Assembly (NCBI GenBank): GCA_034429275.1
Contig: DAOUFU010000013.1
Span: forward strand, 3,313-67,312
DNA from: Anaerolineae bacterium
GTDB taxonomy: Bacteria; Chloroflexota; Anaerolineae; Aggregatilineales; Aggregatilineaceae
Direction of reading: 5' to 3'
Length of the DNA: 64,000 nucleotides
The position numbers and the translations under genes are program-made. This document shows positions 7,990 through 59,439 of this stretch, piece by piece. Within the stretch, counting starts at the first letter, position 1. Every line of letters starts with the position of its first letter. The notes under the pieces were generated by a model that worked only from the letters and a program-made list of their open reading frames with translations, was not told where the DNA came from and did not search any database.

Positions 7990-7990
7990 G

Positions 7991-41754: not shown

Positions 41755-41778
41755 ATGTCCTGTTTTAAAGGATGAATC

Positions 41779-44389: not shown

Positions 44390-45302
44390 CTGGATGCGCG
44401 TTATCTGGTCTGTGTTCAGGTGAAGCGGTCGTGCCGGAAGGCACGACGCACAAGGACGACGTGTAGTCGCGCGTGTGGCGGAACCCAACCGCCAGCGCCG
44501 TCCGAGCAGAGGCAGTGTTCTCGGCATGGCAATGCCAGCCGACCGACTGCCAGCCGAGCGACAGCGCATGTTCGACCGCCGCCGCTGCCGTGATCGTCGC
44601 CAGGCCGCGCTGTCGGTAGTCTGGCCGGGTATGGATGCCGATCTCGCCGTACACTCCGCCTTCGCCGGCGGTGCTGACTCCATCCGCCAACGACCAGCTC
44701 ACCACCTGTGGACCGGCGAGAGCAGCATGGAGCATCACCACGCCGAACCCATGCGCCAGGAAGTTAGCGCGCTTGCACCAGTTGTTGCTGATCCACTCGT
44801 GCACATGGTCAGGCCAGTTGATCTCCGGCGATTCGAGCAGCGAGTCGTCGATCAGGTGCACGCTGAACCCGTCGGGCAGCGCGGCACGCCAGTCGAACGT
44901 CACGCGCGAGCAAAGATAGTGTTGGCGCGCCAGCGTCACCAGTGGAAAGGGGGCGATCGACTCCCACAAGGGCAGCCAGCCCGCCGCGCAGGTGACCAGC
45001 AGCGCGTTGAAGTGATAGCCTTCGGGATGGAAAATCGTGCCGGTGATGAGCGCGCGCAGCGCCTCGCCAAAGGCAGGCACCGCCGCGTCCCCGGCCAGAA
45101 ACGATCCTTCCGGCGTGATCAGGAACGCAGCGCGCGGATTATCGAGCGAGTCCGTCCAGGCGCGGCCCGGACACGTCCCTTCCAACACCGCGCCGATGCA
45201 GGCGTTCCAGGTCGCCAGGTCATCCGCCTCAAACAGCGGGCGAATGCGCCCGGCCTGCTCCACAGGGACCACGATGAGTGATGATGAAACGGTCATGTTC
45301 AT
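44361..45302 (-). CDS. GNAT-family N-acetyltransferase with N-terminal accessory domain
   Basis: 313-aa ORF. The C-terminal part has the acetyl-CoA motif YRQRGLATITAAAAVEHAL followed by HCHAENTASARTALAVGF. Confidence 0.55.
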   Translation of the reverse strand: MNMTVSSSLIVVPVEQAGRIRPLFEADDLATWNACIGAVLEGTCPGRAWTDSLDNPRAAFLITPEGSFLAGDAAVPAFGEALRALITGTIFHPEGYHFNALLVTCAAGWLPLWESIAPFPLVTLARQHYLCSRVTFDWRAALPDGFSVHLIDDSLLESPEINWPDHVHEWISNNWCKRANFLAHGFGVVMLHAALAGPQVVSWSLADGVSTAGEGGVYGEIGIHTRPDYRQRGLATITAAAAVEHALSLGWQSVGWHCHAENTASARTALAVGFRHTRDYTSSLCVVPSGTTASPEHRPDNAHPDAREDSRSG

Positions 45303-47025: not shown

Positions 47026-47034
47026 TGCTATACT
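47026..47034 (+). promoter_or_regulatory. Extended -10 element (TGcTATACT) predicting a leaderless mRNA for the 47-58 kb operon
   Basis: The -10 hexamer ends at 47034, and the ATG at 47041 sits exactly where a TSS would be expected (7 nt downstream). No Shine-Dalgarno is present. Confidence 0.45.
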
Positions 47035-47040
47035 GGCGCT

Positions 47041-47334
47041 ATGACGAATGCTGAGCACCTGCCCGACCTTGAGCTGTGGCAGCCGCGGCTGGCCCGGTGG
47101 GGCGAGCGGCTGCGTGCCCTGCGGTTGAGCGGCCCCGCCGGGGTGATCCTGGATGTGTTGGAACCGCTGGGGCCGTTCGGCGCTCACCTGCTGTGGGTGA
47201 TGCAGCCGGCGCTGGCGCTGGTCGTGCGCCGCGACGACGTGGACGCGCTGGCGCGCCTGCTCGATGCACCGGGTGGGTTCGCCTGGCTGCGCGATCACCT
47301 GCTGGACGAGCAGGATCGCTCCCCGGAACGGTAA
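47041..47334 (+). CDS. Small hypothetical protein (97 aa), first gene of the unknown-function operon
   Basis: The ORF begins at the leaderless-type ATG. Its central hydrophobic stretch (VILDVLEPLGPFGAHLLWVMQPALALVV) is on the same strand and closely spaced with downstream genes. A competing antisense ORF was rejected. Confidence 0.45.
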   Translation: MTNAEHLPDLELWQPRLARWGERLRALRLSGPAGVILDVLEPLGPFGAHLLWVMQPALALVVRRDDVDALARLLDAPGGFAWLRDHLLDEQDRSPER

Positions 47335-47395
47335 CCTCACCAACGGCTGAGGGGGACGGCATGGTGCACACCTATTTCATCAGGATACCGGCCTT

Positions 47396-48139
47396 ATGAT
47401 CACCAACAGCGAGATCACGTGGGTCTTTCTGGCGTTGGGTCTGGTGCTGACCTTTGTCGGGCGATTCATCGTGCGCCGCTTACAGGTGCAGATGCGCACG
47501 ATCAACGCCTATGCCATGCTGCCCGAACTGGCAGCGGATGCCGTCGAGAGCGCCAACCGCGTGCATCTCTCGATGGGCAGCAGCGCGCTGGGCGCGAGTG
47601 GCACCCTCAGCGCGCTGGTCAGCGCCGAGGTGATTTACCGCATGGCCCAGCGTTTTGCCGTCAGCCGCCATCTGCCGCTGCTGACCGTCAGCGAGCCGCT
47701 GACTCTGCCGCTCGCGCAGGATACGCTGCGGCGCGCCTATGAATTCCGGCGCAGCACCGCGCACTTCCGCACCAGTGCGGCAGCCTGGATCCCTTATGGG
47801 CCGCGCTCGCTGGCATTCGCGGCAGGTGCCGCCAGCCTCGCCGCCGATGCCGATGTCAGCAGCACCATCGCGCTGGGCGGGTTCGGGTACGAGCTGGCCC
47901 TGATCGGCGAAAGCGCGATCCTCAACGACCAGGACCTGATCGCTCACAGCAACCTGGTCGAAGGGCAGGCAGTGGCCTACGCCCAGGCGGATCACATGCT
48001 GCTGGGCGAAGAGCTGTATGTTGGCCCGGCCTACCTGGGCGGGTCGGCTTTGGAACGCGGCGGAGTGTTCGCGCTGGATGCGCTGCGCTGGCTGGTGATT
48101 GTGGGTATCCTGGTAATCGCGCTCGAAAGCGCCCTGTGA
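47396..48139 (+). CDS. Hypothetical bitopic/ditopic membrane protein (247 aa)
   Basis: It has an N-terminal TM (ITWVFLALGLVLTFVGRFIV), a C-terminal TM (LRWLVIVGILVIALESAL) and an Ala/Ser/Leu-rich ~190-aa domain between them. I recognised no family. Confidence 0.6.
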   Translation: MITNSEITWVFLALGLVLTFVGRFIVRRLQVQMRTINAYAMLPELAADAVESANRVHLSMGSSALGASGTLSALVSAEVIYRMAQRFAVSRHLPLLTVSEPLTLPLAQDTLRRAYEFRRSTAHFRTSAAAWIPYGPRSLAFAAGAASLAADADVSSTIALGGFGYELALIGESAILNDQDLIAHSNLVEGQAVAYAQADHMLLGEELYVGPAYLGGSALERGGVFALDALRWLVIVGILVIALESAL

Positions 48140-48167
48140 CCGGTTTGCCCGGCTAACTCATGACGAG

Positions 48168-48827
48168 GTGAACGGCGTGAGACGTCACCGCTTGATCAAT
48201 TTTATCGCTACCGTGATTGTGGTCAGCACCCTGCTGCTGACTCTGCTTGGCCTGTCCACCAAACAGGGCAGCCTGCCCGCCGATCTGACCGCTTTTGTGA
48301 TCACATTGGTGGCGGTGGTGGGAGCGATCGCCGTGCTGGTGGGCCTGCTGAACCTGCTGGCGGTTCACCTGGGGCGGATTTCGCGCAGTGAATATGGCTG
48401 GCCCTACAGCATCGTTGTGGTGGTGACGGCGGCCCTGGTGATCGCCCTGCGCGTGCTGGATCGCCAGGGCATCTGGTCGGGCAAGCTGGAAGGCGAGCAG
48501 ATGAGTCTGCGCGTCTTCGAGGCAGTGCAGGTCAGCCTGGAATCGGCGCTGGGGGCGCTGCTGGTCTTTTTCCTGGTCTATGCGGCCTATCGCCTGATGC
48601 GCCGCCAGGTGACGGTGCCCCATCTGCTGTTCACGCTGGCGCTGGTGATCGTGTTGTTGGGCTGGATTCCGCTCAAGGGTGTCGATACGCTGGCCGATGT
48701 GCAGCGCTGGCTGGTGCGTGTGCCGGTCAGTGCAGGGGCGCGCGGCTTGTTGATCGGTGTCGGGTTGGGCACGGTGATGGTAGGCGTGCGCGTGTTGATC
48801 GGCCACGACCGGTCGTTCCGCGGCTGA
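48168..48827 (+). CDS. Hypothetical polytopic membrane protein (219 aa, approx. 6 TM)
   Basis: GTG start and a strongly hydrophobic periodic pattern. I recognised no family. Confidence 0.6.
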   Translation: MNGVRRHRLINFIATVIVVSTLLLTLLGLSTKQGSLPADLTAFVITLVAVVGAIAVLVGLLNLLAVHLGRISRSEYGWPYSIVVVVTAALVIALRVLDRQGIWSGKLEGEQMSLRVFEAVQVSLESALGALLVFFLVYAAYRLMRRQVTVPHLLFTLALVIVLLGWIPLKGVDTLADVQRWLVRVPVSAGARGLLIGVGLGTVMVGVRVLIGHDRSFRG

Positions 48828-48948
48828 GCGCCGATCCACCGGTTACGAGTGTGGTTTACGATTGTGGTCTGTCCGTCGAGTGCCGGACGCAGCAAGCCGC
48901 GTCCCTCTTTCATCCAACATTGGATTTGGCTAAAGTCAGGAAGACGTT

Positions 48949-51900
48949 ATGCCGGACGATCCTAATCTGTTTGATGACGCTGATTTTTGGTCCGGGGAGA
49001 CGCCGGGCAGCACTAACTCTGCAGGGGGCGCTCGTCCGCCCTGGCAGAGCCACCCCGGCGACCCTTCGGCGATGACGGGCGCGCGTCCGGCGGAGCTTCC
49101 GCCCTGGCAGCAGCATCCCGCATCCTCCACGCCTGCCCGGTCAGCCCCCATGCAGCCGCCGCCCTGGCAAGCTCATCCCGGTCCGACTCCCACGCCGCCG
49201 CCTGGCGGCCAGCCCGGTGAGCCAGCCTGGGACGAAATCGGGTGGGCGGTTGATCAGCCGGATGCAGACCGCGCCGCCTCAGCAGCAGGGGCTGACGAAT
49301 TGCCCCAGGGCCTGACCGGGATGCTGCCCTGGCGCAGCGAGACTCAGAGCGCGCCGGCAGGCCCGCCCTCCAGTGCGGACGATTCCGCATGGTTGGAGTC
49401 GTTTGGGCAGACGGGGTATGACAGCAGTTCCAGCCTGCCGCAAGATGACGGTGACCTCAGCTGGCTGACCGGCGACAGCAGCAAGCCCGTTGAACCCGCT
49501 GCCGAGACCGGGGCTGATGGGCTGCTGTGGCCGGATGATGACTTGTTCGCTGGATTGGAAGCGGATTCCACCCCGCCAGCCGAAACCGAAACAGCCCCCT
49601 CTAGCGGAGTCATTCGCCGCCTGGCGCGGCCCCAGGATTCGGTGCCGCCAGCCGTCGAAGCTGCGCAGCCGCAAGCCGATCTCACCGTTGAAGACCTGTT
49701 CGACAGCGCCTTTGGCGATGCCTTCGAGGACATCCTGGGCGAATCCGCCTCTGGCACCCCCGCAGACGCGGGTACAGCGGGCGAGGGTGATGCGGATCTC
49801 TGGCCCGGCGATGAGGCAGCCGCCGAGAAGTCGTTCGCCGAAGAACAGCCGCCCGCCGCCGGAGACCTGCCCGACTGGCTGCGCACCGAAGCCACGCCTC
49901 CAAGTGCGCCTCTGGCTGAAGCATGGGGCACCGAAACAGCCGAGGCTGACACATCCGGCGAAGAAGAAACGCTCCCCGCCTGGGCCGAAGATGGTGCATC
50001 GTTCGCGGCGCAAAGCACCCCCACCAATCTGTCCTATGATGAGTGGGAACAAGCACAGATCGCCCGCGAGCAGGAAGCCGCCAAAACCGAAGAAGATCGC
50101 CTGCTCGAACAGGTCCCCGACTGGTTCGCCCAGCCCGATCAGCCTGCCGCTCCCGCGCCTGATTCTGAACAACCCGCCGGGCCTGAATTCGTGCCGGATT
50201 GGTTCACCGGGCTAGAAGCCCAGAACCTGGAAGCTGCACCCGATTGGTTCCAGAAAATTGACTATACTGCCGATCCGCTGGCGGCCCCTCCCAGCGAGCC
50301 AGAACCTCCGCCGGTCCATGATGCCGTCATGCCGGACTGGCTGCGCCCCGATGGGCTATTGGAACTGGCGGGCCAGGAAGAGTCACCGGCTGAAAGCGAG
50401 CAGCCAGCGGCGGATGAATGGGCAGTCGATGAACCCTTGCCCGATGAGATTGACTTTTTGAACCGCCTGGGTGGAGCATCCTCTGGCCGGGGAAAACAGC
50501 CGCCTGCACCGCCTCCTGCGCCACCGGCAGCCGCGCCGGGCGACGAGGAATGGCGGCGAGCTTTTGAGCCTTCGCCGGAACCGGAGTTTGCCCAGGCCCC
50601 ACCGCCCGTAGGCGATTTCGTCGAGCGGTTTGACCCGTTCGCGCCAGTCGAACCGGCTCCGCCCCCTGCGCCTGAAGCGGCGGCATTCGATCTTGGGCCA
50701 GGCACGCTCGATTGGCTGCAAGACCTCTCTGCTGAGGACTTGAGCGAACCTGAGCCGGAACCGGTCTTCCCGGCAGAACAGCCTGCTGCACCCGAACCTG
50801 AACCCGCCGAGGATTTGCTGCTGGAAGAAGTGAAGGTAGACAGCCAGGCGATCGACAGTCTGCTGGGAATCAGCGACTCGAGCATGGCGCTGGTTGTACC
50901 GCAAGAGCAACCGGTCGCTGCGCCGGAAGAGATCACTTCGTTCGAGTGGCCCGAAGAAGACCCCTGGCTGGCGCTGGAAAAAGCCGAAGCCGCTGCCGAT
51001 GAACGCTTCGCAGGGGCCGAAGTCTTCCCCGAAGAGCAAGCTGCGGAAGACCTGCTCGCCGCCGAGATATTCGAAGCAGATCGCCCCACAACACCAGAGC
51101 GACCGGCCACCGCTGCCAAAGCGGCCCCCGCGCCGCCGCCTGCCGAGGAACCTCCGGTGGCCCCGCGAGAAGCGGCCCGTCCCCAGTGGCTCGAAGAGAT
51201 GCGCCCTGCCGATCTACCGGTGACGTTGATCGCAGGCGGTGCCAGGCTCGATATGATTCAGCACAGCCTGGACGATTTGCCCGATGGGCTGCGCAGCCTG
51301 CACGAGCGGCTCAGTGACGAGCAATCGTTCGCTGAGGCCACGCGCAGTGTCCAGCCGCCGCCTGAAAGTGGCCCACTGGCCGGTATTGTGGACTCGCTGT
51401 CTGCAGTCCCGGCGGCGCTGCCTACCATCCGGCGAGAGGCTATCGTCGAAGGGTTGGTGATCTCACCGGAAGAACAGCGGCGGATTGAGCGCCTGCAGGC
51501 CGTGCTCGACCTGCTGGCTGCCGAAGAGGAAGAAGCCGAAGAAGCACCCGTCGAAGGGTTTGGCTTCAGCTCGACCGCGCCGTTTGATTTTGGCGGCGAA
51601 GAAGTGGACGAAGAAGCGGCGGCGGTGGCTGAAATTTCCGCCAAATCGCGCCCACGCCGCCCGCACCGCTACAAATTTGACCGGCTGGTGATCCTGCTGG
51701 CGATGCTGGCCGCGCTGGTCGTGCCGTTTGTCACCGATGTGGTGCATTTCGCCGCCGATCCGCCCCCACTGGCAGGCGATCAAGCGGCGGTAGCGAGCGC
51801 AGTAGACGCGCTGCTGCCCGGCGATATTGCGCTGGTGGCGCTGGAATATGGCCCTACGGCAGCGGGCGAGCTGGATGGGTTGGCCGAGGCTGTGCTGCGC

Positions 51901-52578
51901 GACATCATCGCACAGCGCGCCGTGCCGGTCATGATCAGCACGAACCCGGCAGCCGCGCTGCACGCCGAAGCCGTGATCGCGCCGCTGCGTGACGATTCCC
52001 TGCTGCTCAAGGCGCGTGGCGACGGCGAATCTGCCCTGGCCGCCGGGGAAGATTACGTGCTGCTGGCTTATCTGCCCGGCGAGGCGGTTGGTGTGCGCTC
52101 GCTGGCCCAGCCGCCGAGCGGAGCGGAAGCCGTGCACCCGGCCTTCAAGACAGACCTGCGAGGCGAAGAAACGGCGCTGACCGTGCATAACATGGCAACA
52201 GATGTCGCCCTGATCGTCGTCGTGAGCGAAGACTCTGCCGGGGTGCGGACCTGGGCGGAACAGCTCGAAAGTGTGCCCACGCTCAAAGTGGCGCTGGTGA
52301 CCGCCGCCACCGAACCGCTCGTCGAGCCATACGTCAATGCAAAGGGATATGTCGGGTACCTGGCCGGGGTGCGCGATACCTACAGCTACAACGCGGCACG
52401 AAACAGCACCACGCGCGAGCCATATGTTGTACCCGAGGGCATCACGTTTGACGTGCCCGACCCCGAAAGCGCGCGCTGGCACAGCATGGCCCTGGGCGCG
52501 GCGGCGGCAGCAGCCGTGATTGCACTGGGCACAATGGTGAATCTGATCCGGGCTTTAGGACGGAGGCGCAGCCGGTGA
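48949..52578 (+). CDS. 1209-aa acidic Pro/Trp-motif repeat protein with two C-terminal TM helices bracketing an approx. 270-aa domain
   Basis: AGGAAG RBS. The first ~900 residues are low-complexity (D/E/P/A-rich) with PPWQxHP x3 and at least 8 copies of a [hydrophobic]-P-D-W-[LF] motif. TM1 is LVILLAMLAALVVPFV and TM2 is ALGAAAAAAVIALGTMVNLI, followed by an RRRSR tail. Confidence 0.75.
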   Translation: MPDDPNLFDDADFWSGETPGSTNSAGGARPPWQSHPGDPSAMTGARPAELPPWQQHPASSTPARSAPMQPPPWQAHPGPTPTPPPGGQPGEPAWDEIGWAVDQPDADRAASAAGADELPQGLTGMLPWRSETQSAPAGPPSSADDSAWLESFGQTGYDSSSSLPQDDGDLSWLTGDSSKPVEPAAETGADGLLWPDDDLFAGLEADSTPPAETETAPSSGVIRRLARPQDSVPPAVEAAQPQADLTVEDLFDSAFGDAFEDILGESASGTPADAGTAGEGDADLWPGDEAAAEKSFAEEQPPAAGDLPDWLRTEATPPSAPLAEAWGTETAEADTSGEEETLPAWAEDGASFAAQSTPTNLSYDEWEQAQIAREQEAAKTEEDRLLEQVPDWFAQPDQPAAPAPDSEQPAGPEFVPDWFTGLEAQNLEAAPDWFQKIDYTADPLAAPPSEPEPPPVHDAVMPDWLRPDGLLELAGQEESPAESEQPAADEWAVDEPLPDEIDFLNRLGGASSGRGKQPPAPPPAPPAAAPGDEEWRRAFEPSPEPEFAQAPPPVGDFVERFDPFAPVEPAPPPAPEAAAFDLGPGTLDWLQDLSAEDLSEPEPEPVFPAEQPAAPEPEPAEDLLLEEVKVDSQAIDSLLGISDSSMALVVPQEQPVAAPEEITSFEWPEEDPWLALEKAEAAADERFAGAEVFPEEQAAEDLLAAEIFEADRPTTPERPATAAKAAPAPPPAEEPPVAPREAARPQWLEEMRPADLPVTLIAGGARLDMIQHSLDDLPDGLRSLHERLSDEQSFAEATRSVQPPPESGPLAGIVDSLSAVPAALPTIRREAIVEGLVISPEEQRRIERLQAVLDLLAAEEEEAEEAPVEGFGFSSTAPFDFGGEEVDEEAAAVAEISAKSRPRRPHRYKFDRLVILLAMLAALVVPFVTDVVHFAADPPPLAGDQAAVASAVDALLPGDIALVALEYGPTAAGELDGLAEAVLRDIIAQRAVPVMISTNPAAALHAEAVIAPLRDDSLLLKARGDGESALAAGEDYVLLAYLPGEAVGVRSLAQPPSGAEAVHPAFKTDLRGEETALTVHNMATDVALIVVVSEDSAGVRTWAEQLESVPTLKVALVTAATEPLVEPYVNAKGYVGYLAGVRDTYSYNAARNSTTREPYVVPEGITFDVPDPESARWHSMALGAAAAAAVIALGTMVNLIRALGRRRSR

Positions 52579-53252
52579 CTCCTGAGACTCTTGATCTGAT
52601 CGCCGGGTGGGCGGGCCTGGTGCTCACCCTGATGATATTCAGCTACCTGCTGGGCGATAATGCCCTCTACCGGGTGGCAGTGCACGTCCTGGTGGGTGTC
52701 GCAGCCGCCTATGCGGCCATCGTGGCCGTCGAGAGCGTGCTGGTGCCCTGGTTCGACCAGACCCTGCTGGCCAAAGCCAGCGACAATGATGCAGCGACTC
52801 TGGCCGCGCTGCGTGTGGTTGGGCTGATTCCAGTGCTGGTGGGCGTGCTGCTGCTGCTCAAATCCTCGACTCGGCTGGCTCCGCTGGGCGATCTGGGCAT
52901 GGCCTGGATCATCGGAGTGGGCACGGCGGTGTCGCTGGTGGGAGCGGTCGCCGGAACGATCCTGCCCCTGGCGCGCGAAACGGGCGAAAGTCTGGGCGAT
53001 AATGCGCTGGAGGGAGTGATCCTCGTGGCGGGGGTGATCGTCACGCTGCTCTACTTCCAGTACCTTGCCGTTGAACGGGGCGGCAAAATGCAGCGCCCCC
53101 TGGGGCTGAGCATCCTCAGCCGGATCGGGCAGGGCGTCATCGCGCTCACCCTGGGCGCGCTGTACGCCGGCGCGATCCTGACCAGCCTGGCAATCTTCAG
53201 CGATGTCATCCGCCGGCAGCTTGAGTTCATTCTGGACCGGATAGGGGGCTAG
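52575..53252 (+). CDS. Hypothetical polytopic membrane protein (225 aa)
   Basis: The GTG start overlaps the upstream stop (GTGA). It has about 6 hydrophobic helices. I recognised no family. Confidence 0.65.
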   Translation: MTPETLDLIAGWAGLVLTLMIFSYLLGDNALYRVAVHVLVGVAAAYAAIVAVESVLVPWFDQTLLAKASDNDAATLAALRVVGLIPVLVGVLLLLKSSTRLAPLGDLGMAWIIGVGTAVSLVGAVAGTILPLARETGESLGDNALEGVILVAGVIVTLLYFQYLAVERGGKMQRPLGLSILSRIGQGVIALTLGALYAGAILTSLAIFSDVIRRQLEFILDRIGG

Positions 53253-53256
53253 GGCT

Positions 53257-55086
53257 ATGGCGTTTGAGCACATGAACTCCGTGCTGGTGGCGGATATTGG
53301 CAACGCGCACACGCGCCTGGTCCTGATCGACCTGGTCGAAGGGAAATATCGCCTGATCGCCTCATCGCGGGCGCGCACGACCGCCCAACCACCCCTGAAC
53401 AGTGTGGGACTGGGGCTGGAACATGCCGCCCAAATCATGACCTCGACAATTGGCCGCACCTTGATCGACCCCGACCCGGAGCGGCTGTTCAAAATGCCGG
53501 AAGAAGATGGTCACGGGGTCGATGGATTTGTAGCGACCAGCAGCGCCGGGCGTCCGATGCGCGTCTTTTTGGTTGGGGTGACGCCGGAAATCAGCCTGAC
53601 GAGCGGTCGCCGCGCGCTGGGCGGCGCATACGTGACCATCACCGGCATGCTCGGCCCGCACGACACGCGCAGCGATACGCAGAAGATCAACGCCATCCTG
53701 CGCGACGATCCCGATATGATCCTGATTGTGGGTGGGACAGATGACGGCGCGGACGATATTCTGCTCGACCAGGTGCGGTTGGTAGCCCGCGCGCTGTCCT
53801 TGATCCGGCGCGGCACGATGCCCACCGTGTTATTTGCGGGCAACCAGGCGGTGCGCAAAGCTGTGCGCGCCATCCTCAACCCGATCACCGAGGTCTATAC
53901 CGCCCGCAATGTGCGCCCCACGCTGGATGAGGAGCAGTTGTTCCCGGCACAGCTTGAGCTGGCACTGGTTTATGATGACTACCGCGCCAAATCGCCTGGC
54001 GGTTTCGCCGAAGTCGGGCGGCAAAGCCAGATCGGCATCGTGCCCACTACCCAGGGCTACCTGAGCGCGATGCGCTACATGACTGCGCTCAGCGAACGCC
54101 CGGTCGGCCCGCTGTGTATCGACATCGGCAGCAGCAACAGCATGATGGTCACCAGCATCGATGGTGAGGTCCAGGTGGCCATCCGATCCGATCTGGGCAT
54201 GGGGCATTCGATGGTGAGCACGCTGGAACGGCTGGGCGCAGAGCATATCACGCGGTGGCTGCCGTTCGATCTAGCTGAGCGCCCGCTGCTGGATTATGTC
54301 CACAACAAGCAGCTGCGCCCCACCACCATCCCGGCCACCTCCGAAGAGCTGATGCTGGAGCAGGCCTTCGCGCGCGCCATCACCGTGCAGATGATCGAGG
54401 AGCTTCGGCCAAGCTGGAACCAGGGACGCAGCCTGCTGCTGCCCCCTTTCAGCCCGATCATCGCAGCAGGCGCGATCTTGACCGAGGCTCAGCATCCCGG
54501 AATTTCGGCACTGATGCTGCTCGACGCGCTGCAGCCGGTCGGCATCACCGAGCTTCGGCTCGACCCGCACAACCTGCTCTCGGCGCTGGGCGTAGTGGCT
54601 TATCTCAAGCCGGTGATGATGGTGCAGGCGCTCGAAGCGGGCGGGCTGGTCACGCTGGGGACGGCCTTCTGCCCCCTGGGGCATGTGCGCCAGGCAAAAG
54701 ACGCCATGACTATCCGCGTCCGCCTGCCCGATGGCCGCGTGCTCAACAAGCGGCTGCTGGGCGGCGATCTGTGGATGGCCCCGGTGCTGCCGGGCATCGC
54801 GTGCGAAGTGGAGATTCGACTGCGGCGCGGCCTGTCGATCAACGGCAAGCAGCGCATCCGTCAGCGCGTGATGGCCGGGGCAGCAGGCATTATTTTTGAC
54901 GCGCGTGGGCGTCCTTTCAACCTGCCGCGCCCCCGCGACCGCGTGGCGCGCTATCTCCGCTGGCAGCAGGCTATGACCGGCCAGGAACCGGGCGTCGCGC
55001 CGCCCGAACCGCCGCCGCCGGACGAAGCGTTGATCCCCGATCTGGGCGAACTGACCGGGCTGGAGGATAGGGTCGAGGTGAGATAA
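53257..55086 (+). CDS. GlmL/MutL-type ASKHA (actin/Hsp70/sugar-kinase fold) ATPase, 609 aa
   Basis: Phosphate-1-like VLVADIGNAHTRLVLID, phosphate-2-like LCIDIGSSNSMMV and the GlmL-family-like IVGGTDDGADD motif are present. It has a Pro-rich acidic C-terminal tail. RBS is GGGGG. Confidence 0.6.
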   Translation: MAFEHMNSVLVADIGNAHTRLVLIDLVEGKYRLIASSRARTTAQPPLNSVGLGLEHAAQIMTSTIGRTLIDPDPERLFKMPEEDGHGVDGFVATSSAGRPMRVFLVGVTPEISLTSGRRALGGAYVTITGMLGPHDTRSDTQKINAILRDDPDMILIVGGTDDGADDILLDQVRLVARALSLIRRGTMPTVLFAGNQAVRKAVRAILNPITEVYTARNVRPTLDEEQLFPAQLELALVYDDYRAKSPGGFAEVGRQSQIGIVPTTQGYLSAMRYMTALSERPVGPLCIDIGSSNSMMVTSIDGEVQVAIRSDLGMGHSMVSTLERLGAEHITRWLPFDLAERPLLDYVHNKQLRPTTIPATSEELMLEQAFARAITVQMIEELRPSWNQGRSLLLPPFSPIIAAGAILTEAQHPGISALMLLDALQPVGITELRLDPHNLLSALGVVAYLKPVMMVQALEAGGLVTLGTAFCPLGHVRQAKDAMTIRVRLPDGRVLNKRLLGGDLWMAPVLPGIACEVEIRLRRGLSINGKQRIRQRVMAGAAGIIFDARGRPFNLPRPRDRVARYLRWQQAMTGQEPGVAPPEPPPPDEALIPDLGELTGLEDRVEVR

Positions 55087-56195
55087 TGGCATACCGTCCT
55101 GAGACCACTGTGATCATGGGCATGGCGCGCATCCTGCGCGACCGATCCCTTCCCCCAAAGGCTATCTCGCGCCCGGTCCACACCCTCACCGGCCAGAAAG
55201 TCGAGGCCAGCACGGTGGTGCTGGAAGGCGACATGCTGAGCGATTATCACGTTATCGATGCCGCCGCACATTTCCGCCTGCGCGACCTGCCGATGCTCGC
55301 CAGCATGATCCACGTCGGCGTAGGGGACCGGGTGACCAAGGGGCAAGAACTGGCCTCGCGGCGCAAAGGACGCGGCCCCAAAACGCTGCTCTCGCCTATC
55401 GATGGCATCGTGGTGCGGGTGGATGGCGGGCAGATCACGCTGCAAGAAAGCGCCGCCCAGATCGAACTGCTGGCGCGCATCCCCGGCGAAGTGGAAGTCC
55501 TGGAATCGGGCACGGTGCGTGTGACTACCAGCGGCGCGATCATCCAGTGTGCCTGGGGCAACGGCAAGTTTGTCTATGGGACGTTTCGCTTCTTGCCGGA
55601 TGATGGTTTCGCTGGCCTCAGCCGCGAGGACGTGCGCATCTCGCAGTACCGCGGCGTGGTTATCATCAGCCCCATCCCCATCGACAAAGGCGATCTGCTG
55701 GTCGCCCAACAGCAAGAGCTGAGCGGCGTGGTGGCCCCCAGTATGCCCGCCTACTTGCGCGAATTCGCGATGGGGCTTACATTTCCCGTAATTGTAACAG
55801 AAGGATTCGGCCAGCGGCGGTCTACCGCGTTGATCTATCACCTGTTGCAGAGTAACATCGGGCGTCAGGCGACCTTTGACGCGGTCATCCCCGATCCCTG
55901 GTCGGCAGACCGGCCTGAGATCGTCATTCCGCTGCCGTCAGGGGGCATTCTGCCGCCAACACCGGCCTTTGACCTGCCTTTAGAGACTGGTGCGCAAGTG
56001 CGTATCACACGCGCGCCCTGGGATGGATTGCTGGGTGAGATTGTGGAGCTGCCGCAGGCTCCGCAACTCGTCGATAATGGGCTGCGGCTGCCGTGCGCCC
56101 AGGTACGGCTGCCGGACAACCGGACCGTGACCGTCCCCCTGGCGAACCTCGAACTGCTGGGGACGTTGGGTGGGGCGCGGAGCACGGGCCAATAG
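55086..56195 (+). CDS. Hypothetical protein with barrel-sandwich-hybrid (lipoyl/HlyD-like) hairpin and KOW/SH3-like C-terminus
   Basis: The start overlaps the upstream stop (TAATG). VGVGDRVTKGQELA...SPIDGIVVRVDGGQITLQ resembles a barrel-sandwich hybrid. GAQVRITRAPWDGLLGEIVEL resembles a KOW motif. No TM helix. Confidence 0.6.
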   Translation: MAYRPETTVIMGMARILRDRSLPPKAISRPVHTLTGQKVEASTVVLEGDMLSDYHVIDAAAHFRLRDLPMLASMIHVGVGDRVTKGQELASRRKGRGPKTLLSPIDGIVVRVDGGQITLQESAAQIELLARIPGEVEVLESGTVRVTTSGAIIQCAWGNGKFVYGTFRFLPDDGFAGLSREDVRISQYRGVVIISPIPIDKGDLLVAQQQELSGVVAPSMPAYLREFAMGLTFPVIVTEGFGQRRSTALIYHLLQSNIGRQATFDAVIPDPWSADRPEIVIPLPSGGILPPTPAFDLPLETGAQVRITRAPWDGLLGEIVELPQAPQLVDNGLRLPCAQVRLPDNRTVTVPLANLELLGTLGGARSTGQ

Positions 56196-56209
56196 CGCGG
56201 AGGACTTAT

Positions 56210-57904
56210 ATGCCAGACGATGACCTGTTTCGCGATGATTTGTTTCCCGAAGACGAGAGTGAATTCTTTGACGACCTGGCCAGCGAAGAGCCATTTTTCC
56301 CTGGCGAAGAGGATGAGTTCCCCTTCGATATGGACGAATCCGCCCAAGAGCAGGGAGGGGTCAGCCGGGCCTTCAAGATTCTCGGTGGGCTGCTGCTGGT
56401 AGCAGCCATCGGCGTAGTCGCGCTGGTGATCTGGTTGGTGCTCGGAAGCGACCAGGGCCCCACCGACAACGAGAGCACCTCGACGGCAGTGATTGCCACC
56501 AATACGGCGGTTCAGATTGCCTATCAGAACACGGTGACGGCCCAGGCATTAATGGTTCAAGCCACCGAAAATGCCGTCCAAACGCAAATCGCGCTCGCAA
56601 CCGCGACTGAAAACGCCTTCCAGACTCAGCAGGCCGTCGCAGCCACCAGCGCCGCCCAAACGGCCACGGCTGAGTTCATTGCCAGCCAGACGGCCCAGGC
56701 TGCCGCCACGCAGACGGCGATTGTGCAGGCCACCCAGGCCGAAGCGGAGCGGCTGCTGCGCATCATCAAGGGTCAGCTGGTCGGCGAAGGCGAACTGAGC
56801 TTTGCCAATGCAACCCTGCGGCTCTACCGCGACGATGGCAACGGCGAGTTCAACCCGGCGGCTGGTGCTGCCATTCCCACGCCAGCGCCTCTGACCGGTG
56901 CGAGCACGGCTGTGCCGCTCCCGGCAGCCCAGGCAACGACCGTCCCGGTGAATACCATCACCTACGGCGCGACCGTGGAAGGACTGCTCGAAGGGAACGC
57001 GCCCGACCTGTGGTATTTCTCCGGTAAATCGGGCGACGTGGTAACGGTCAGCGCCGTGGCGGCCAACAGTATGCAGACCGATATGTTCCTCGACCTGAAG
57101 GGGCCAAGCGGAAGTTCGCTGACGACAGACGACGACTCCGGCGGCAATTTCAACGCGTCGATCATCGCCTATGAGCTGCCCGCGACCGGCAACTATGTGA
57201 TCGAAGTCAGCAGCGTCTCTGGCCCCGGTGCGTATACACTGTCGCTGGAACTGGGCGGGCCTGCTTCTGCCCCAGGGGCTAACCCGGCCCCCACTGCCGA
57301 AACGGGCGGCGTGAGCTATGTGCCGCGCGCGGCAGGGCTGAACATCGGCGCGATCGAGGTGGCTGCCCAGGGCAACACCACGCCGGTCCCGACCAATACA
57401 CCTCAGCCTGCAGGCGGCGATGAAGCCGTCAGTGAGCTGATCGTGCCGCAGGATGGGTCGTTCGATTTTGGCGAAATGGAAGAAGGCACTTACTGGATCG
57501 AGATCGACTACGACTCGCTGTCACCGGCGCTTCAGGCCCTGTATCCGCCTGGCCAGCCGATCATCTTCCAGGTGATTGTGCCCACATCGGGAGAACCGAT
57601 CATCATCAGGCCGCCTGTGCCCGGCGCAACGCCCACATCTACAGCCACCGCCACCCCGGCAGGCCCCTCGGCCACGCCCGGCGGCGAATCGCCAACCCCG
57701 TCTGGACCGGTGACAATTACCCCTTCGCCCGAACCTGGCACTCCGGCCACACCGGCTGCCCTGCCGACCACTGGCTTCTTTGGTGACATCGGCGACTCGA
57801 CGGGCGCGCTGGAGGGATCGAGCGGGCTGATGATCCTGGCGATTGCCGCAGTGGGGCTGGTTGCTGTAGTGTTCATCGCACGGCGGCTGCGCACATCTGG
57901 CTAA
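56210..57904 (+). CDS. Surface protein with N-terminal acidic cytoplasmic tail plus TM anchor, Q/A/T-rich stalk, PPC-like beta-domain and C-terminal LPXTG-type sorting signal
   Basis: GGAGGA RBS. N-terminus is MPDDDLFRDDLFPEDESEFFDD, followed by TM ILGGLLLVAAIGVVALVIWLVL. ATENA[VF]QTQ repeats are present. The pre-peptidase-C-terminal-like segment is YGATVEGLLEG...GNYVIEVSS..GAYTLSLE. The C-terminus has LPTTG (57761-57775), a hydrophobic helix and an RRLRTSG tail. Confidence 0.7.
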   Translation: MPDDDLFRDDLFPEDESEFFDDLASEEPFFPGEEDEFPFDMDESAQEQGGVSRAFKILGGLLLVAAIGVVALVIWLVLGSDQGPTDNESTSTAVIATNTAVQIAYQNTVTAQALMVQATENAVQTQIALATATENAFQTQQAVAATSAAQTATAEFIASQTAQAAATQTAIVQATQAEAERLLRIIKGQLVGEGELSFANATLRLYRDDGNGEFNPAAGAAIPTPAPLTGASTAVPLPAAQATTVPVNTITYGATVEGLLEGNAPDLWYFSGKSGDVVTVSAVAANSMQTDMFLDLKGPSGSSLTTDDDSGGNFNASIIAYELPATGNYVIEVSSVSGPGAYTLSLELGGPASAPGANPAPTAETGGVSYVPRAAGLNIGAIEVAAQGNTTPVPTNTPQPAGGDEAVSELIVPQDGSFDFGEMEEGTYWIEIDYDSLSPALQALYPPGQPIIFQVIVPTSGEPIIIRPPVPGATPTSTATATPAGPSATPGGESPTPSGPVTITPSPEPGTPATPAALPTTGFFGDIGDSTGALEGSSGLMILAIAAVGLVAVVFIARRLRTSG

Positions 57905-57969
57905 GATTGCAGGTGCGCGCGTTGCACCAGATCGGCGAATAGGTTACACTCCGCGTTAGTGTTGTTCAG

Positions 57970-57996
57970 GGGCGATCCATCAGGATCGCCCTTTAT
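57970..57996 (+). terminator. Terminator of the 47-58 kb operon
   Basis: GGGCGATCC-atca-GGATCGCCC is followed by TTTAT. It lies 65 nt after the stop at 57904. Confidence 0.55.
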
Positions 57997-58038: not shown

Positions 58039-59439
58039 GTGATTCCTGGTATGTCTTCGACACCTTCGCGCGTGGCACGCTGCCGACCCCATGATGTGGT
58101 GGCGATTGTCGATTTGCTGGCAGTCGGTCAACCGGTCGCCGTAGTGGGACTCAGCAACTTCGGCAAATCGACCCTGATGCGCCAGATGGTCGAGCCGAAA
58201 GTCGGCGCAGCCTATCGAGACATGACCGGGCGCGAGGCGCTGTTCGTCTACGTCGATTGCAACCGGATGCTCGAAATGAGCGCGCAGGGACTCTACGAAG
58301 CCATCCTGCGGGCGATTCTCGAAGCGCTCACCGGCGATCCTGGCCAGGCGGCACTCAGCGGCACGCTGACGGAACTCTATGGCAAAGTCGTCGAGTCGCG
58401 CAGCACGTTTGCGATCCCGCTCGCGTTCAACGACGCCATCATCGCGCTGCTGGAGGACCCGGCTCAGCGTGATGTGATCCTGCTGCTGGACGAGTTCGAC
58501 GACGTGCTGACCGGCCTGGAAGAGCGCGTGTTCCTGAATTTCCGCGCCCTGAAGGACAAATACACTCACCGGCTCAATTACGCGATCGCCACCCTGCGCC
58601 CGCCTTCGGCGGTGGGCGGCGGCGATAATCTCAACGAGTTTCTCGAACTCTTCGCCGCCCAGAAATATCACCTGAAGCCGCTCAGCCCGGAGGATGCCGC
58701 CGCCGTGGCAGCGGAGATATTCGAGCAGGCGGGCGACCATCTCGATCCCTGGGAAAGGGAGTTCATCCTGGCCCAGGCGGGCGGGCACCCAGGGCTGATT
58801 CGTGCGGCCTCACACGTGGTCATGGAAGTAGAGTCCGGCGTGCCAGCGACCTACACCCAGCAGGCGCTGGATGTGGCCAGCGACGTGTGCCAGAACCATC
58901 CGCTGGTGCGCGGCGAGCTAAGCCGCCTGTGGCAGCATCTGCTGCCCCACGAACGTGAGGCGGCGACTCAGGCAGCAGCACACGGGATCGCCAGCCTATC
59001 CGACGATCAGCGTTCCCTGCTGGTCACGCGCGGGCTGCTGGTCGAAAGCGGCACGTCAGCCCGCCTGTTCGCCGACCTGTTTGCTCACTATGCCCGCCGA
59101 CAAGGACTGGTGCATCACAACGCGCCCCAGGGCGTGTGGATCGATGTGGATGCAGGGACGGCTCAGGTCAATGGCCGGGTGGTGGATTCGCTGACCGATC
59201 TCGAATACCGCCTGCTGCTGCTGCTCTATGGGCGCGTTGACAAAATCTGCGACAAGTACCAGATTGTCGAAGCGGTATGGGGGCAGGATTATCTGGGTGA
59301 GGTAGATGACGCCCGTGTTGAGAAACTGGTGAGCAGGCTGCGCGCCAAACTGGAACCGGACCCCGCCAACCCGCGCTATATCATCACCGTGCGGGGCCGG
59401 GGATATAAACTGGACCAGGGCGGCAGCCTGGAGGAATGA
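58039..59439 (+). CDS. P-loop NTPase (AAA/STAND-like) fused to a C-terminal OmpR/PhoB-type winged-helix DNA-binding domain
   Basis: Walker A is VVGLSNFGKST and Walker B is ILLLDEFDD. The C-terminal part is LTDLEYRLLLLLYGRVDKICDKYQIVEAVWG...VEKLVSRLRAKLEPDPANPRYIITVRGRGYKL (trans_reg_C-like). Start is GTG 58039 or ATG 58051. Confidence 0.7.
   Translation: MIPGMSSTPSRVARCRPHDVVAIVDLLAVGQPVAVVGLSNFGKSTLMRQMVEPKVGAAYRDMTGREALFVYVDCNRMLEMSAQGLYEAILRAILEALTGDPGQAALSGTLTELYGKVVESRSTFAIPLAFNDAIIALLEDPAQRDVILLLDEFDDVLTGLEERVFLNFRALKDKYTHRLNYAIATLRPPSAVGGGDNLNEFLELFAAQKYHLKPLSPEDAAAVAAEIFEQAGDHLDPWEREFILAQAGGHPGLIRAASHVVMEVESGVPATYTQQALDVASDVCQNHPLVRGELSRLWQHLLPHEREAATQAAAHGIASLSDDQRSLLVTRGLLVESGTSARLFADLFAHYARRQGLVHHNAPQGVWIDVDAGTAQVNGRVVDSLTDLEYRLLLLLYGRVDKICDKYQIVEAVWGQDYLGEVDDARVEKLVSRLRAKLEPDPANPRYIITVRGRGYKLDQGGSLEE

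Follow-up and report, generated by a model that had tools for sequence, protein, structure and literature searches.

Organization of the gene cluster

The 64,000-nt stretch of Anaerolineae DNA analysed here (the window) carries eight open reading frames, designated A to H, on the + strand at 47041-57904, and all of them were found at the starts given in a preliminary description of the locus. They form a genuine eight-gene operon. The genes, flanking signals and downstream neighbours are as follows.

46965-46936, - strand: divergent promoter TTGACA-18-TATAGT (sigma-70 scan)
47026-47034, + strand: extended -10-like element TGcTATACT (read from the sequence), 6 nt before the ATG of gene A (47041)
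47041-47334, + strand: gene A, 97 aa (ORF)
47396-48139, + strand: gene B, DUF6754 protein, 247 aa (PF20539, E=3.9e-11)
48168-48827, + strand: gene C, polytopic membrane protein, about 6 helices, 219 aa (ORF, hydropathy/conservation)
48885-48904, + strand: hairpin GGACGC-N8-GCGTCC in the 121-nt C-D spacer (terminator-like scan)
48949-52578, + strand: gene D, acidic repeat protein, 1209 aa (ORF)
52575-53252, + strand: gene E, polytopic membrane protein, about 6 helices, 225 aa (ORF, hydropathy/conservation)
53257-55086, + strand: gene F, ASKHA ATPase of Pfam MutL/GlmL type, 609 aa (PF13941, E=3e-57)
55086-56195, + strand: gene G, soluble protein, 369 aa (AF2 pLDDT 86.6)
56210-57904, + strand: gene H, LPXTG surface protein, 564 aa (ORF)
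57970-57996, + strand: GC-rich hairpin followed by TTTAT (read from the sequence)
58039-59439, + strand: P-loop NTPase (AAA_16/nSTAND1-like) with a C-terminal OmpR-type winged helix (Pfam)
59563-63750, + strand: giant GAF/PAS histidine kinase (Pfam)

Independent gene calls on public contigs with an identical F gave the same lengths for D, E, F and G, and the base composition of the cluster matched that of the remainder of the window. D and E overlap by 4 nt (GTGA), E and F are 4 nt apart, F and G overlap by 1 nt (TAATG, in which the start codon of G overlaps the stop of F), and 14 nt separate G from H. The A-B, B-C and C-D spacings are looser (61, 28 and 121 nt), so the term translationally coupled, previously applied to the whole operon, is valid for D to H only.

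The leaderless-type element described before the operon was recovered as a sequence match, TGcTATACT, and its position is compatible with a leaderless transcript of the operon. It was not among the matches of the sigma-70 two-hexamer scan because a good -35 is absent. Downstream, the hairpin GGGCGATCC-ATCA-GGATCGCCC (57970-57991) has a 9-bp stem and a 4-nt loop and is the probable operon terminator. The stem and loop agree with the earlier description of a terminator here; the T-tract is weak, and the hairpin was unlisted by the consensus terminator scan, failing on its T-run.

Conservation and distribution

Genes B to G were present, colinear and on a single strand in 48 of the 49 related genome loci with sufficient flank, in line with the synteny that had been predicted. 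A lay upstream of B in 47/49 such loci, and in about 55 of 57 loci G was immediately followed by an H-like gene. Together the eight form a unit that is conserved on one strand. One locus (L035) carries F-G-H-R without A to E. The B family comprises 509 representatives at 50% identity among 1.84 billion proteins, and DUF6754 proteins with only 25% identity to B were still found inside the same cluster. Every related locus bore a taxonomic label of Chloroflexota or Anaerolineae. The cluster has so far been found only in Chloroflexota, in Anaerolineae-labelled genomes, a restriction that draws on the top-ranking 80 of 428 genome matches plus a few metagenome contigs.

The NTPase-wHTH gene and the giant kinase, put forward earlier as possible regulators, do adjoin the cluster in the window, but across the family orthologues lay downstream in only 20/47 loci for the former (including the distant L004, L031 and L088) and 22/47 for the latter, a partial co-location. 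The NTPase-wHTH protein is a possible associated regulator of the cluster.

Searches of Pfam, NCBIfam, PADLOC, PDB sequences and Foldseek recovered no characterised system, as the preliminary description had anticipated; no known pilus, division, secretion, Nqr/Rnf, gliding or defence system was matched. A full-text literature search returned no paper naming DUF6754, PF13941 or TIGR01319.

Genes A, B, C and E

The product of A has no predicted membrane helix and no Pfam or NCBIfam match; its conserved core reads LLD..EPLGPLGAQ.LWVAQP. The other three are integral membrane proteins. B matched PF20539 with 43 bits (cut-off 27) and has no sequence relative in the PDB. Hydropathy and conservation place its helices at aa 7-25 and 224-242, bracketing a conserved, Ala/Gly/Ser-rich region of about 190 aa, which the basic residues after helix 1 suggest is cytoplasm-facing. 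Three small polytopic membrane proteins had been described; this fits C and E, whereas B, with two clear helices, is not plainly polytopic. C contains conserved polar residues (N62, H67, E125, R142, R192 and D214) and gave only sub-threshold Pfam matches, while E carries the conserved stretches SYLLGDN.LYR, PW, LLLLK, GTL.PL and YFQY and gave no Pfam match. Neither has a PDB relative, and homology between the two was undetectable (hhalign probability 0.3).

The ATPase F and its partner G

The domains of F and G are located as follows.

53281-54630, + strand: MutL domain of F (PF13941)
54649-54900, + strand: extra C-terminal beta domain of F, aa 465-548
54931-54978, + strand: conserved basic/aromatic helix of F, aa 559-574
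55281-55454, + strand: barrel-sandwich hybrid in the beta-rich N-terminal part of G
55605-55940, + strand: alpha/beta domain of G
55983-56156, + strand: KOW-like domain of G

The placement of F in the ASKHA/MutL superfamily was borne out by its score against PF13941 (194.8 bits, cut-off 27), by its AF2 model (pLDDT 90.5) and by its Foldseek neighbours, namely hydantoinase-type carboxylases, FtsA, PilM, sugar kinases and DdrA. The structural neighbours included the complexes PilM:PilN(1-12) and FtsA:FtsN(1-29). At the nucleotide site, D13, G15, T19, G159-G160-T161, D289, G291 and G405 were invariant in 36 sequences. F belongs to the MutL/GlmL family of Pfam and is an intact ATPase with the actin (ASKHA) fold. 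It has no sequence relative in the PDB and no Pfam match to MreB, FtsA or ParM, and it scored below every NCBIfam cut-off, with 86 bits for GlmL (cut-off 475), 63 for Or-4 (600) and 55 for TIGR01319 (204). F was rejected as a GlmL orthologue on these scores. F has its Pfam family, ASKHA fold and GGTD motif in common with the glutamate mutase accessory protein GlmL/MutL (PF13941, TIGR01319), to which the reactivases EutA and DdrA/PduG are related, but it differs in its extra C-terminal beta domain and basic helix and in its invariable position among membrane-protein genes; in no cluster locus with listed genes did a B12 mutase lie beside it. An additional domain at aa ~90 to ~215 lies inside the MutL-domain match. 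F probably spends ATP on conformational or chaperone-type work, in concert with a partner subunit.

G is a soluble multi-domain partner of F; no membrane helix was predicted. Foldseek returned domain-level matches only (TM about 0.8 for the KOW domain, at most 0.23 for the whole chain), and of 39 family members 16 matched RnfC_N, 12 NqrA_N and 10 KOW. A profile search with G also matched the KOW domain of Spt5. Its N-terminal part has the same small fold as the N-terminal barrel-sandwich hybrid of NqrA/RnfC, on weak matches that were sub-cut-off in the window G, but the alpha/beta and KOW parts are unlike these proteins, and no other Nqr/Rnf subunits and no FeS or flavin motifs were detected. 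On inspection, no conserved Lys occupies the place in the hybrid motif where the biotin/lipoyl lysine is usually found.

The double-anchored proteins D and H

Both D and H are, from their sequences, double-anchored membrane proteins with an acidic/aromatic tail and an ectodomain.

48949-51678, + strand: acidic, Pro-rich disordered region of D, predicted cytoplasmic, with 25 Trp motifs
51688-51744, + strand: helix 1 of D
51745-52491, + strand: alpha/beta ectodomain of D
52492-52548, + strand: helix 2 of D, followed by a basic tail
56210-56374, + strand: acidic/aromatic tail of H, predicted cytoplasmic
56390-56446, + strand: GxSR(T/A)F and helix 1 of H
57005-57214, + strand: PPC domain of H (E=1.8e-8)
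57761-57775, + strand: LPTTG of H
57824-57880, + strand: helix 2 of H, followed by RRLR

The previous descriptions of D as a two-helix acidic repeat protein, of G as a barrel-sandwich/KOW protein and of H as a PPC and LPTTG protein proved accurate. In neither D nor H was a basic N-region or signal peptide found, and in both a long acidic N-terminus precedes the first helix; hydropathy and the positive-inside rule put these tails, by prediction, in the cytoplasm. The tail of D spans roughly 900 residues (22% acidic, 5% basic). It begins with the conserved peptide MPDD.N.FDD and carries about 17-25 [DE]-L-P-D-W-L motifs; the family motif is [DE]-[LV]-P-[DE]-W-[LFM], with a median of 17 Trp per tail. 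Among about 14,000 ORF segments of at least 50 aa from the window and 89 loci, runs of at least three P[DE]W[LFM] occurred in D-family ORFs only. The ectodomain of D has no PDB relative, and distant orthologues gave an N-terminal Zn-ribbon match under the Pfam cut-off.

In H, a tail of 55 aa is followed by helix 1, a Thr/Ala/Gln-rich stalk, the PPC domain and a Pro/Thr linker. The PPC domain is a lineage-specific insert, and distant orthologues have 160-200 aa. Cell-wall-type modules were recognised on both ectodomains. In 11 of 35 D orthologues SH3_3 gave a match within the C-terminal 300 residues, in the stretch that separates the two membrane helices, and it scored above cut-off in three of them (L068, L070 and L083). 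H carries an LPxTG sorting signal with the conserved pattern PxTG-[FL]F-D...helix...RR. One H orthologue (L085) passed TIGR01167 LPXTG_anchor with 17.2 bits (cut-off 15.9), and a sortase gene lies 3 kb upstream of its cluster; the window H was under that cut-off. No sortase was found in the window, and one adjoined the cluster in just 1 of 89 loci. H shares with sortase-dependent LPXTG proteins a C-terminus in which LPxTG is followed by a hydrophobic helix and a tail of basic residues. It differs from them in having no cleavable signal peptide, in its acidic cytoplasmic tail, its long spacer from LPTTG to the helix, the missing Pro in several orthologues, and an N-terminal helix that looks uncleaved, so H would be membrane-anchored as well as wall-linked.

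Proposed assembly and alternative explanations

Our working interpretation, of less than even confidence, is that the eight genes together specify a single envelope-spanning assembly, inherited vertically. F and G would form a cytoplasmic ATPase module, and B, C and E the membrane core. Short linear motifs, namely the LPDWL repeats of D and the conserved peptides at the N-termini of D and H, would recruit the module to the membrane. As candidate sites for these motifs, G offers its KOW/SH3-like domain and F its C-terminal beta domain and its basic helix. Sortase processing would place H covalently on peptidoglycan with its N-terminal helix still in the membrane, and ATP-driven changes in F-G would thereby be coupled to the cell wall. 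The envelope-spanning module of the preliminary description is supported; the physical coupling of the ATPase to a wall-linked protein, with all docking steps, is what we infer. An enzymatic or chaperone role for F is equally compatible, because hydantoinase-type carboxylase subunits and sugar kinases rank with FtsA and PilM among its neighbours. The scarcity of sortase genes beside the cluster, the H orthologues without the Pro, the sub-cut-off score of the window H and the L035 locus also speak against the proposal.

By analogy, the working principle would be that of PilM-PilN (the type IV pilus alignment complex), FtsA-FtsN or MreB-RodZ, in which a cytoplasmic actin-fold ATPase sits on the short conserved N-terminal peptide of a wall-reaching bitopic protein, although the parts do not share ancestry with these systems. 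The complexes PilM:PilN(1-12) and FtsA:FtsN(1-29), found among the structural neighbours of F, offer a precedent for such a mechanism, yet F has no sequence-family match to PilM, FtsA or MreB and lies in another ASKHA branch, and the cluster is without PilN, PilO, PilP, PilQ, FtsN, MreC, MreD or RodZ homologues. The Agl-Glt gliding focal-adhesion complex is alike in concept, as Zn-ribbon- or peptide-bearing tails of bitopic proteins such as GltJ link an actin-fold system to the envelope. However, the recurrent weak matches of short H orthologues to the GltJ model reached 13-21 bits where the cut-off is 450 and covered a membrane helix plus a low-complexity region, and the cluster has no further Glt or Agl proteins.

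We consider it unlikely that the cluster is instead a biogenesis machine, in which B, C, E and the F-G ATPase would insert or translocate D and H, F acting as a chaperone on the acidic N-terminal tails and H being cargo that is sortase-linked afterwards. The acidic N-termini before helix 1, in proteins that carry no signal peptide, would suit such a machine, as would the conserved sorting signal of H and the lineage-to-lineage variation of its ectodomain beside conserved machinery. Among the relatives of F, GlmL, EutA and DdrA serve as chaperone-like reactivases that depend on ATP, and DdrA is one of the Foldseek matches of F. Nevertheless, none of the components looks like Sec, YidC, Tat, T7SS or another translocase, we know of no precedent for an ASKHA-driven translocase, and D is as conserved as the other components, which suggests that it is a component and not cargo.

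Somewhat less probable still is a cytomotive filament, with F polymerising like MreB, ParM or MamK and the LPDWL tail of D, possibly via G, concentrating or nucleating it at the membrane, as formin FH1, ActA and MamJ do. The actin fold and intact nucleotide site would allow this, D and H would supply membrane attachment, and the acidic, repetitive, multivalent tail of D recalls the MamK-MamJ pair of magnetosomes. But D has a membrane anchor, an ectodomain and a different repeat (LPDWL), F is not MamK-like, and magnetosome genes are absent. F is set apart from the filament-forming families by the lack of a Pfam match to them, by its two extra domains and by its GlmL/hydantoinase branch, of which no member is known to polymerise.

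A transporter or ion-coupled complex, with B, C and E as the channel, F-G energising or regulating it and D and H as accessory anchors, is more doubtful again. The presence of three different small membrane proteins whose hydrophobic segments contain invariant polar or charged residues would fit this, as would the resemblance of the barrel-sandwich domain of G to the N-terminal parts of NqrA and RnfC, which are peripheral subunits in ion-pumping membrane complexes. Against it, these matches fell below cut-off in the window G, no Nqr/Rnf membrane subunit, cofactor motif or transporter family was detected, and no substrate-related gene lay beside the cluster in loci with listed gene calls.

That F is a canonical GlmL, reactivating with G a coenzyme-B12-dependent mutase encoded elsewhere while the membrane genes are unrelated neighbours, is very improbable despite its Pfam membership, the public annotation of its homologues as 'glutamate mutase L' and a B12-binding-domain protein at 23462-25111, 22 kb from the cluster, since F fails both GlmL and TIGR01319, is about 150 aa longer than GlmL, adjoins a mutase subunit in none of the loci with listed genes and is surrounded by the same membrane genes in 48/49 genomes.

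The envelope-spanning assembly, as tentatively proposed, would most likely serve to build or maintain the envelope, or the septa, in these filamentous monoderms, and the cluster that encodes it is conserved across the Anaerolineae, the filamentous Chloroflexota.

Organization of the eight-gene cluster

The preliminary description placed eight same-strand ORFs in 47026-57996, and ORF calls returned every one of their starts exactly. These genes, A to H, and the associated features are as follows.

Features of the cluster and its surroundings
47026-47034, + strand: extended -10-like element TGcTATACT (sequence match), ending 6 nt 5' of the gene A ATG
47041-47334, + strand: gene A, ORF of 97 aa
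47396-48139, + strand: gene B, ORF of 247 aa
48168-48827, + strand: gene C, ORF of 219 aa
48885-48904, + strand: GC-rich hairpin GGACGC-N8-GCGTCC followed by CTCTTTC, inside the 121-nt C-D spacer
48949-52578, + strand: gene D, ORF of 1209 aa
52575-53252, + strand: gene E, ORF of 225 aa
53257-55086, + strand: gene F, ORF of 609 aa
55086-56195, + strand: gene G, ORF of 369 aa
56210-57904, + strand: gene H, ORF of 564 aa
57970-57996: GC-rich hairpin with a 9-bp stem and a weak T-tract, read from the sequence
23462-25111, - strand: 549-aa protein with an N-terminal B12-binding domain (Pfam), 22 kb from F and on the opposite strand

Genes D and E overlap by 4 nt and F and G by 1 nt, and the gaps are 4 nt between E and F and 14 nt between G and H. 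Since the A-B, B-C and C-D spacers measure 61, 28 and 121 nt, tight coupling is limited to D-H; the translational coupling proposed for all eight genes therefore stood for D to H and fell for the three upstream spacers. The leaderless-type promoter element claimed before the operon was located by sequence match only, and its placement before gene A would fit a leaderless mRNA. A hairpin 3' of the operon was likewise present, though its T-tract was weak. The hairpin in the C-D spacer, which is unusually long, could be an internal attenuator or a processing site.

Long antisense ORFs were also present in the cluster region, as expected given the 64-65% G+C, and the forward-strand set was singled out over them by conservation. 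An identical F was found on public metagenomic contigs, the longest of 148 kb, where independent gene calls gave identical lengths for D, E, F and G.

Conservation and taxonomic distribution

Homologues of F and of G in the protein collection were annotated, where named, as Chloroflexi, Anaerolineae or Aggregatilinea. The same gene order was found around three F homologues, one each from Aggregatilinea lenta, a genome bin of the Aggregatilineales and a contig of the Anaerolineales at 36-38% identity: small protein, DUF6754 protein, membrane protein, large protein, membrane protein, MutL protein, a protein of about 360 aa and a variable last gene. When one genome per GTDB species was scanned, 428 genomes encoded a relative. 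The best 80 of the 428 loci bore the labels Chloroflexota, Anaerolineae, Aggregatilineales, Ardenticatenia or Thermoflexus, except for two that were named simply 'bacterium'.

Synteny of the homologues in other genomes had been set as a test beforehand. Six-frame ORFs of the related loci were searched with the window proteins, and A-G were counted only in loci with enough flank (n = 49), taken from the best 80 of 428. In 48 of these 49 loci, B-G were all found in the same order and on a single strand, and A was present in 47. The exception, locus L035 (1-17000), carries F, G, H and R (the P-loop NTPase with an OmpR-type winged helix that follows the cluster) without A-E upstream, and could represent a second or a rearranged copy. 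Directly 3' of G, a gene ending in the H-type C-terminal signal was recognised by pattern in 49 of 57 loci, and inspection added another 6. For B, 509 representatives at 50% identity were obtained among 1.84 billion proteins, and three of the most divergent branches, which share about 25% identity with B, were again found within the A-H arrangement. The base composition of the cluster was that of the remaining window. Because synteny is conserved, distant branches included, these comparisons indicate that the cluster is ancient and has been inherited vertically as a unit, and that it is neither a random succession of ORFs nor a mobile island.

Among the most distant DUF6754 loci, only L004 was assigned taxonomically, to Anaerolineales; exact-sequence matching of housekeeping neighbours gave no organism names for these loci. 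A convergent phosphoglucomutase/phosphomannomutase gene lies downstream of the cluster in L004, L085 and L088, and NurA and HerA genes lie upstream of it in L004 and L088.

Protein F is an ASKHA ATPase of the Pfam MutL family

Protein F scored 194.8 bits against PF13941 (MutL; cut-off 27, E = 3e-57), with aa 9-458 aligned to profile positions 1-445 of 450. Its AF2 model (pLDDT 90.5, pTM 0.87) matched acetone/acetophenone carboxylase (hydantoinase-type), LsrK, FtsA, PilM, glycerol kinase and DdrA at a Foldseek probability of 1.0. In 36 diverse homologues, D13, G15, T19, D289, G291 and G405 of the nucleotide site were invariant. Profile and model together thus identify F as a predicted intact ASKHA ATPase of this family, with conserved phosphate-1, phosphate-2 and adenosine motifs, and its earlier placement in the ASKHA/GlmL superfamily was borne out. 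C-terminal to the MutL domain, aa 465-548 form a beta domain in the model; they are followed by a conserved basic/aromatic helix (aa 559-574) with invariant R562 and W569. A sequence-related solved structure was not found for F by PDB sequence and profile search. In L085, F is split into genes of 364 and 206 aa, probably due to a frameshift.

A canonical GlmL reactivase role for this MutL-family protein is very improbable, being contradicted by both the NCBIfam scores and the gene context. F stayed far under the NCBIfam cut-offs for GlmL (NF040745, 86.4 vs 475), Or-4 (62.7 vs 600) and TIGR01319 (55 vs 204), and no B12 mutase is adjacent: B12-mutase Pfam families were absent among the called neighbours in L001, L002, L004 and L085-L088, and likewise among the ORFs scanned in the window from 35226 to 63750. 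The sole B12-binding protein, that at 23462-25111, is encoded 22 kb away on the other strand, and an octopine-dehydrogenase-like gene (25124-26335) adjoins its gene. The label 'glutamate mutase L' on public F-type genes is probably misleading.

The PilM structures matched by F in Foldseek include a PilM:PilN peptide complex. The likeness to PilM of the type IV pilus exists at the level of the fold only: F had no PilM or GspL match at E<=0.1 in Pfam or NCBIfam, and the other seven proteins matched no PilM, PilN, PilO, PilP, PilQ, GspL or GspM family in these databases.

Protein G

The product of the gene after F was predicted to be soluble, with zero membrane helices. Its AF2 model (pLDDT 86.6) has three parts, namely a beta-rich N-terminal part with a barrel-sandwich hybrid, an alpha/beta domain and a KOW-like domain. 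The G family gave weak but recurrent RnfC_N, NqrA_N and KOW matches and a profile match to the Spt5 KOW, and the Foldseek domains were concordant, in agreement with the first reading of G as a soluble barrel-sandwich/KOW-like protein. Foldseek matches were confined to single domains, KOW and PA/swivel-like, and no whole-chain structural analogue was found by this search (TM 0.23 or less). Window G itself stayed below the cut-offs in the NqrA_N or RnfC_N test (18.1 bits vs 25 and 15.1 vs 25.6). Since the usual biotin/lipoyl-lysine position of the hybrid motif lacks a conserved Lys, G is not a carrier protein.

Membrane proteins B, C and E and small protein A

Protein B matched DUF6754 (PF20539) with 43 bits against a cut-off of 27. 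Two strong membrane helices lie around a conserved Ala/Gly/Ser-rich region of about 190 aa; R34, E51 and R231 are invariant, and H57, S59, E166, Q191, E205 and E206 nearly so. C and E, two different membrane proteins of six helices each, have invariant polar residues, and profile-profile comparison detected no homology between them. A is small and conserved and matches no known family. No PDB sequence relative was found for A, B, C or E, and PDB sequence and profile searches with F, G, B, C, E and the D ectodomain returned the KOW match and noise only.

The double-anchored proteins D and H

Of the first 900 or so residues of D, 21% are acidic, 5% basic and 15% proline, and this stretch holds 25 Trp in short motifs. 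In 43 full-length orthologues, these follow the pattern [DE]-[LV]-P-[DE]-W-[LFM]-x-[DE], and the number of Trp per tail has a median of 17. The first copy of the motif lies in a conserved N-terminal peptide, M-x-D-D-x-N/P-x-F-D-D-x-L-P-D-W-L. Among the ORFs of the window and the 89 related loci, at least three P[DE]W[LFM] motifs occurred exclusively in D orthologues. The topology of D and H was derived from hydropathy and charge bias. Basic residues precede helix 1 of D and follow its helix 2, which puts the tail in the cytoplasm and an alpha/beta domain of about 250 aa outside. A bacterial SH3 module, typically a cell-wall binding domain, was detected in the outside part of 11 of 35 orthologues, with SH3_3 above its cut-off of 27 (37-46 bits) in L068, L070 and L083. 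In these three loci (L083 3220-9255, L068 4241-9343, L070 3767-9355), D has 1700-2000 aa and carries SH3_3 between the two membrane helices.

In distant orthologues, the N-terminus of D gave a Zn-ribbon match (Zn_Ribbon_1, 18-21 bits, under the cut-off of 25) followed by LPDWL repeats. A CxxC...CxxC start replaces the acidic MPDD peptide in D of L085 (11394-13721), L086 (11427-14084) and L088 (7776-10664); the L086 protein has 25 Trp, mostly as 'GDLPDWL'.

The conserved core of H consists of an acidic Phe-rich N-terminal tail, G-x-S/N-R-T-F, a membrane helix, a Thr/Ala/Gln-rich stalk, a Pro/Thr linker, the signal [LVIM]-P-x-[TS]-G-[FL]-[FA]-D-D, and a second helix followed by R-R-x-R. In window H these last elements are LPTTG at aa 518-522, a helix at 539-557 and RRLR. 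The LPXTG-type signal was kept in about 55 of 57 loci, so that the description of H as an LPXTG protein was upheld. Against TIGR01167 (LPXTG_anchor, cut-off 15.9), the L085 orthologue scored 17.2 and that of L088 11.7, and window H had no match. The PPC-like domain reported for H was found by Pfam in the window protein; it is a lineage-specific insert, and distant orthologues have only 160-200 aa. By inspection, H showed neither a cleavable Sec signal peptide nor a basic N-region, and its 55 acidic residues before the first helix are unlike a cleavable signal peptide. Weak GltJ and FliL matches of H were rejected as membrane-helix or low-complexity artefacts.

No sortase gene was found in the 64-kb window, and one occurred within 10 kb of the cluster in 1 of the 89 loci, L085. 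There (7166-8074), the cluster is closely preceded by genes for a sortase (PF04203) and a PIG-L deacetylase, the sortase gene lying 3 kb upstream.

Overall, the acidic tails of D and H are predicted to be cytoplasmic, and their ectodomains carry wall-associated features.

Genomic neighbourhood

Pfam identified a RIO-type kinase and two GNAT acetyltransferases in divergent orientation upstream of the cluster, and R and a GAF/PAS histidine kinase of 1395 aa downstream of it. R lay 3' of the cluster in 20 of the 47 loci with enough downstream sequence, including the distant L004, L031 and L088, and the GAF/PAS kinase in 22 of the 47. A regulatory link of R to the cluster is plausible from this arrangement and is not universal.

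The window holds two multi-GAF/PAS histidine kinases, one of 1839 aa (29636-35155, - strand) and the 1395-aa one (59563-63750, + strand). The RIO1-domain kinase ORF (43292-44683, - strand) probably has an internal real start, since it overlaps the GNAT ORF at 44361-45302 by about 320 nt and its RIO domain covers aa 284-418 only. RNase J (40080-41699) adjoins the gene for a 477-aa DEAD-box RNA helicase (41779-43212, + strand; CSD, DEAD and Helicase_C, with the cold-shock domain N-terminal), and a few kb upstream are a beta-CASP/RMMBL nuclease (35226-36710, - strand) and an RNase D-like exonuclease (36720-37904, - strand). The nucleases and helicase of 35226-43212 look like an RNA-turnover neighbourhood. 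Three tRNA-Ser genes with anticodons CGA, GCT and TGA lie at 18085-18173 (+ strand), 29297-29389 (- strand) and 29413-29502 (- strand), two of them adjacent.

Comparison with known systems

The conserved unit comprises an ASKHA ATPase with a soluble partner, together with three or four membrane proteins and two proteins that are double-anchored. By sequence comparison, family-level assignment extends only to F (PF13941, not GlmL), B (DUF6754), the PPC insert of H and SH3b in some D proteins. The cluster lacks the features that define type IV pilus/T2SS alignment complexes, cytoskeletal actins, Nqr/Rnf and Agl-Glt gliding. Full-text literature searches found no paper naming DUF6754, PF13941 or TIGR01319, and nothing relevant on GlmL with actin, on glutamate mutase L in Anaerolineae or on an LPDWL motif. 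As a system, the cluster is thus outside every characterised kind compared. The earlier statement that it is not recognisable as a characterised secretion, division, motility or pilus system agreed with the lack of any family, PDB or Foldseek whole-system match. A known anti-phage defence system was rejected (no PADLOC match for nine proteins at E<=0.01), as was the cyanobacterial FcmB actin, which belongs to a ParM-derived family and is unrelated.

Possible function of the cluster

It is quite possible, if somewhat short of probable, that the products of A-H form one envelope-spanning assembly in which F and G dock on the tails of D and H and are coupled via B, C and E to the wall. F and G would be recruited by short linear motifs of D and H, for which the KOW/SH3-like domain of G and, in F, the C-terminal beta domain and the basic helix are candidate readers. 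B, C and E would couple ATP turnover to the ectodomains in contact with the wall. H, if processed by a sortase, would have its C-terminus on peptidoglycan and its N-terminus still in the membrane. In PilM-PilN, FtsA-FtsN and MreB-RodZ, a bitopic membrane protein is held by its N-terminal peptide, to which an actin-fold protein binds in the cytoplasm; the working principle suggested here would be alike, but no part of the cluster is homologous to these systems.

Other roles can be considered for the same set of proteins. That it is a dedicated biogenesis machine for D and H, the double-anchored proteins encoded with it, appears unlikely. An actin-like system that polymerises, with the multivalent tail of D as nucleator, would draw on the fold of F and the repeated motif of D; F had no MreB_Mbl, FtsA, ParM or MamK match at E<=0.1 in Pfam or NCBIfam, and we regard this reading as distinctly unlikely. 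A transporter or ion-coupled complex could be imagined from the membrane proteins B, C and E and the RnfC_N and NqrA_N matches of the G family; no Nqr or Rnf subunits were found among the neighbours by Pfam and NCBIfam, and this role seems improbable.

Within the reading as one envelope-spanning assembly, a more specific proposal can be put forward only tentatively: a new cytoplasm-to-wall coupling device, in which a GlmL-branch actin-fold ATPase with its KOW/barrel-sandwich partner, recruited in many copies by a multivalent LPDWL tail, would act on a protein both membrane-anchored and linked by sortase to peptidoglycan. If so, filamentous monoderm Chloroflexota would possess an ATP-driven system of their own that serves morphogenesis of the envelope or septum or a mechanical linkage, and the GlmL/MutL ATPase family would gain a function unrelated to B12 enzymes. 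A major branch of that family, annotated everywhere as 'glutamate mutase L', would be non-metabolic and membrane-associated, DUF6754 would be assigned a context and LPDWL would be a new bacterial short linear motif. In practical terms, the present annotation of F-type genes probably misleads.

Few bacteria of sediments, soils and digesters are as abundant and as little understood as the Anaerolineae, and to our knowledge almost nothing is known of how their monoderm filaments build envelope and septa. With its cytoplasmic ATPase, three novel membrane proteins, multivalent short-motif scaffold and doubly anchored, putatively wall-linked protein, this widely conserved eight-gene module offers a concrete entry point to the envelope biology of the Anaerolineae.
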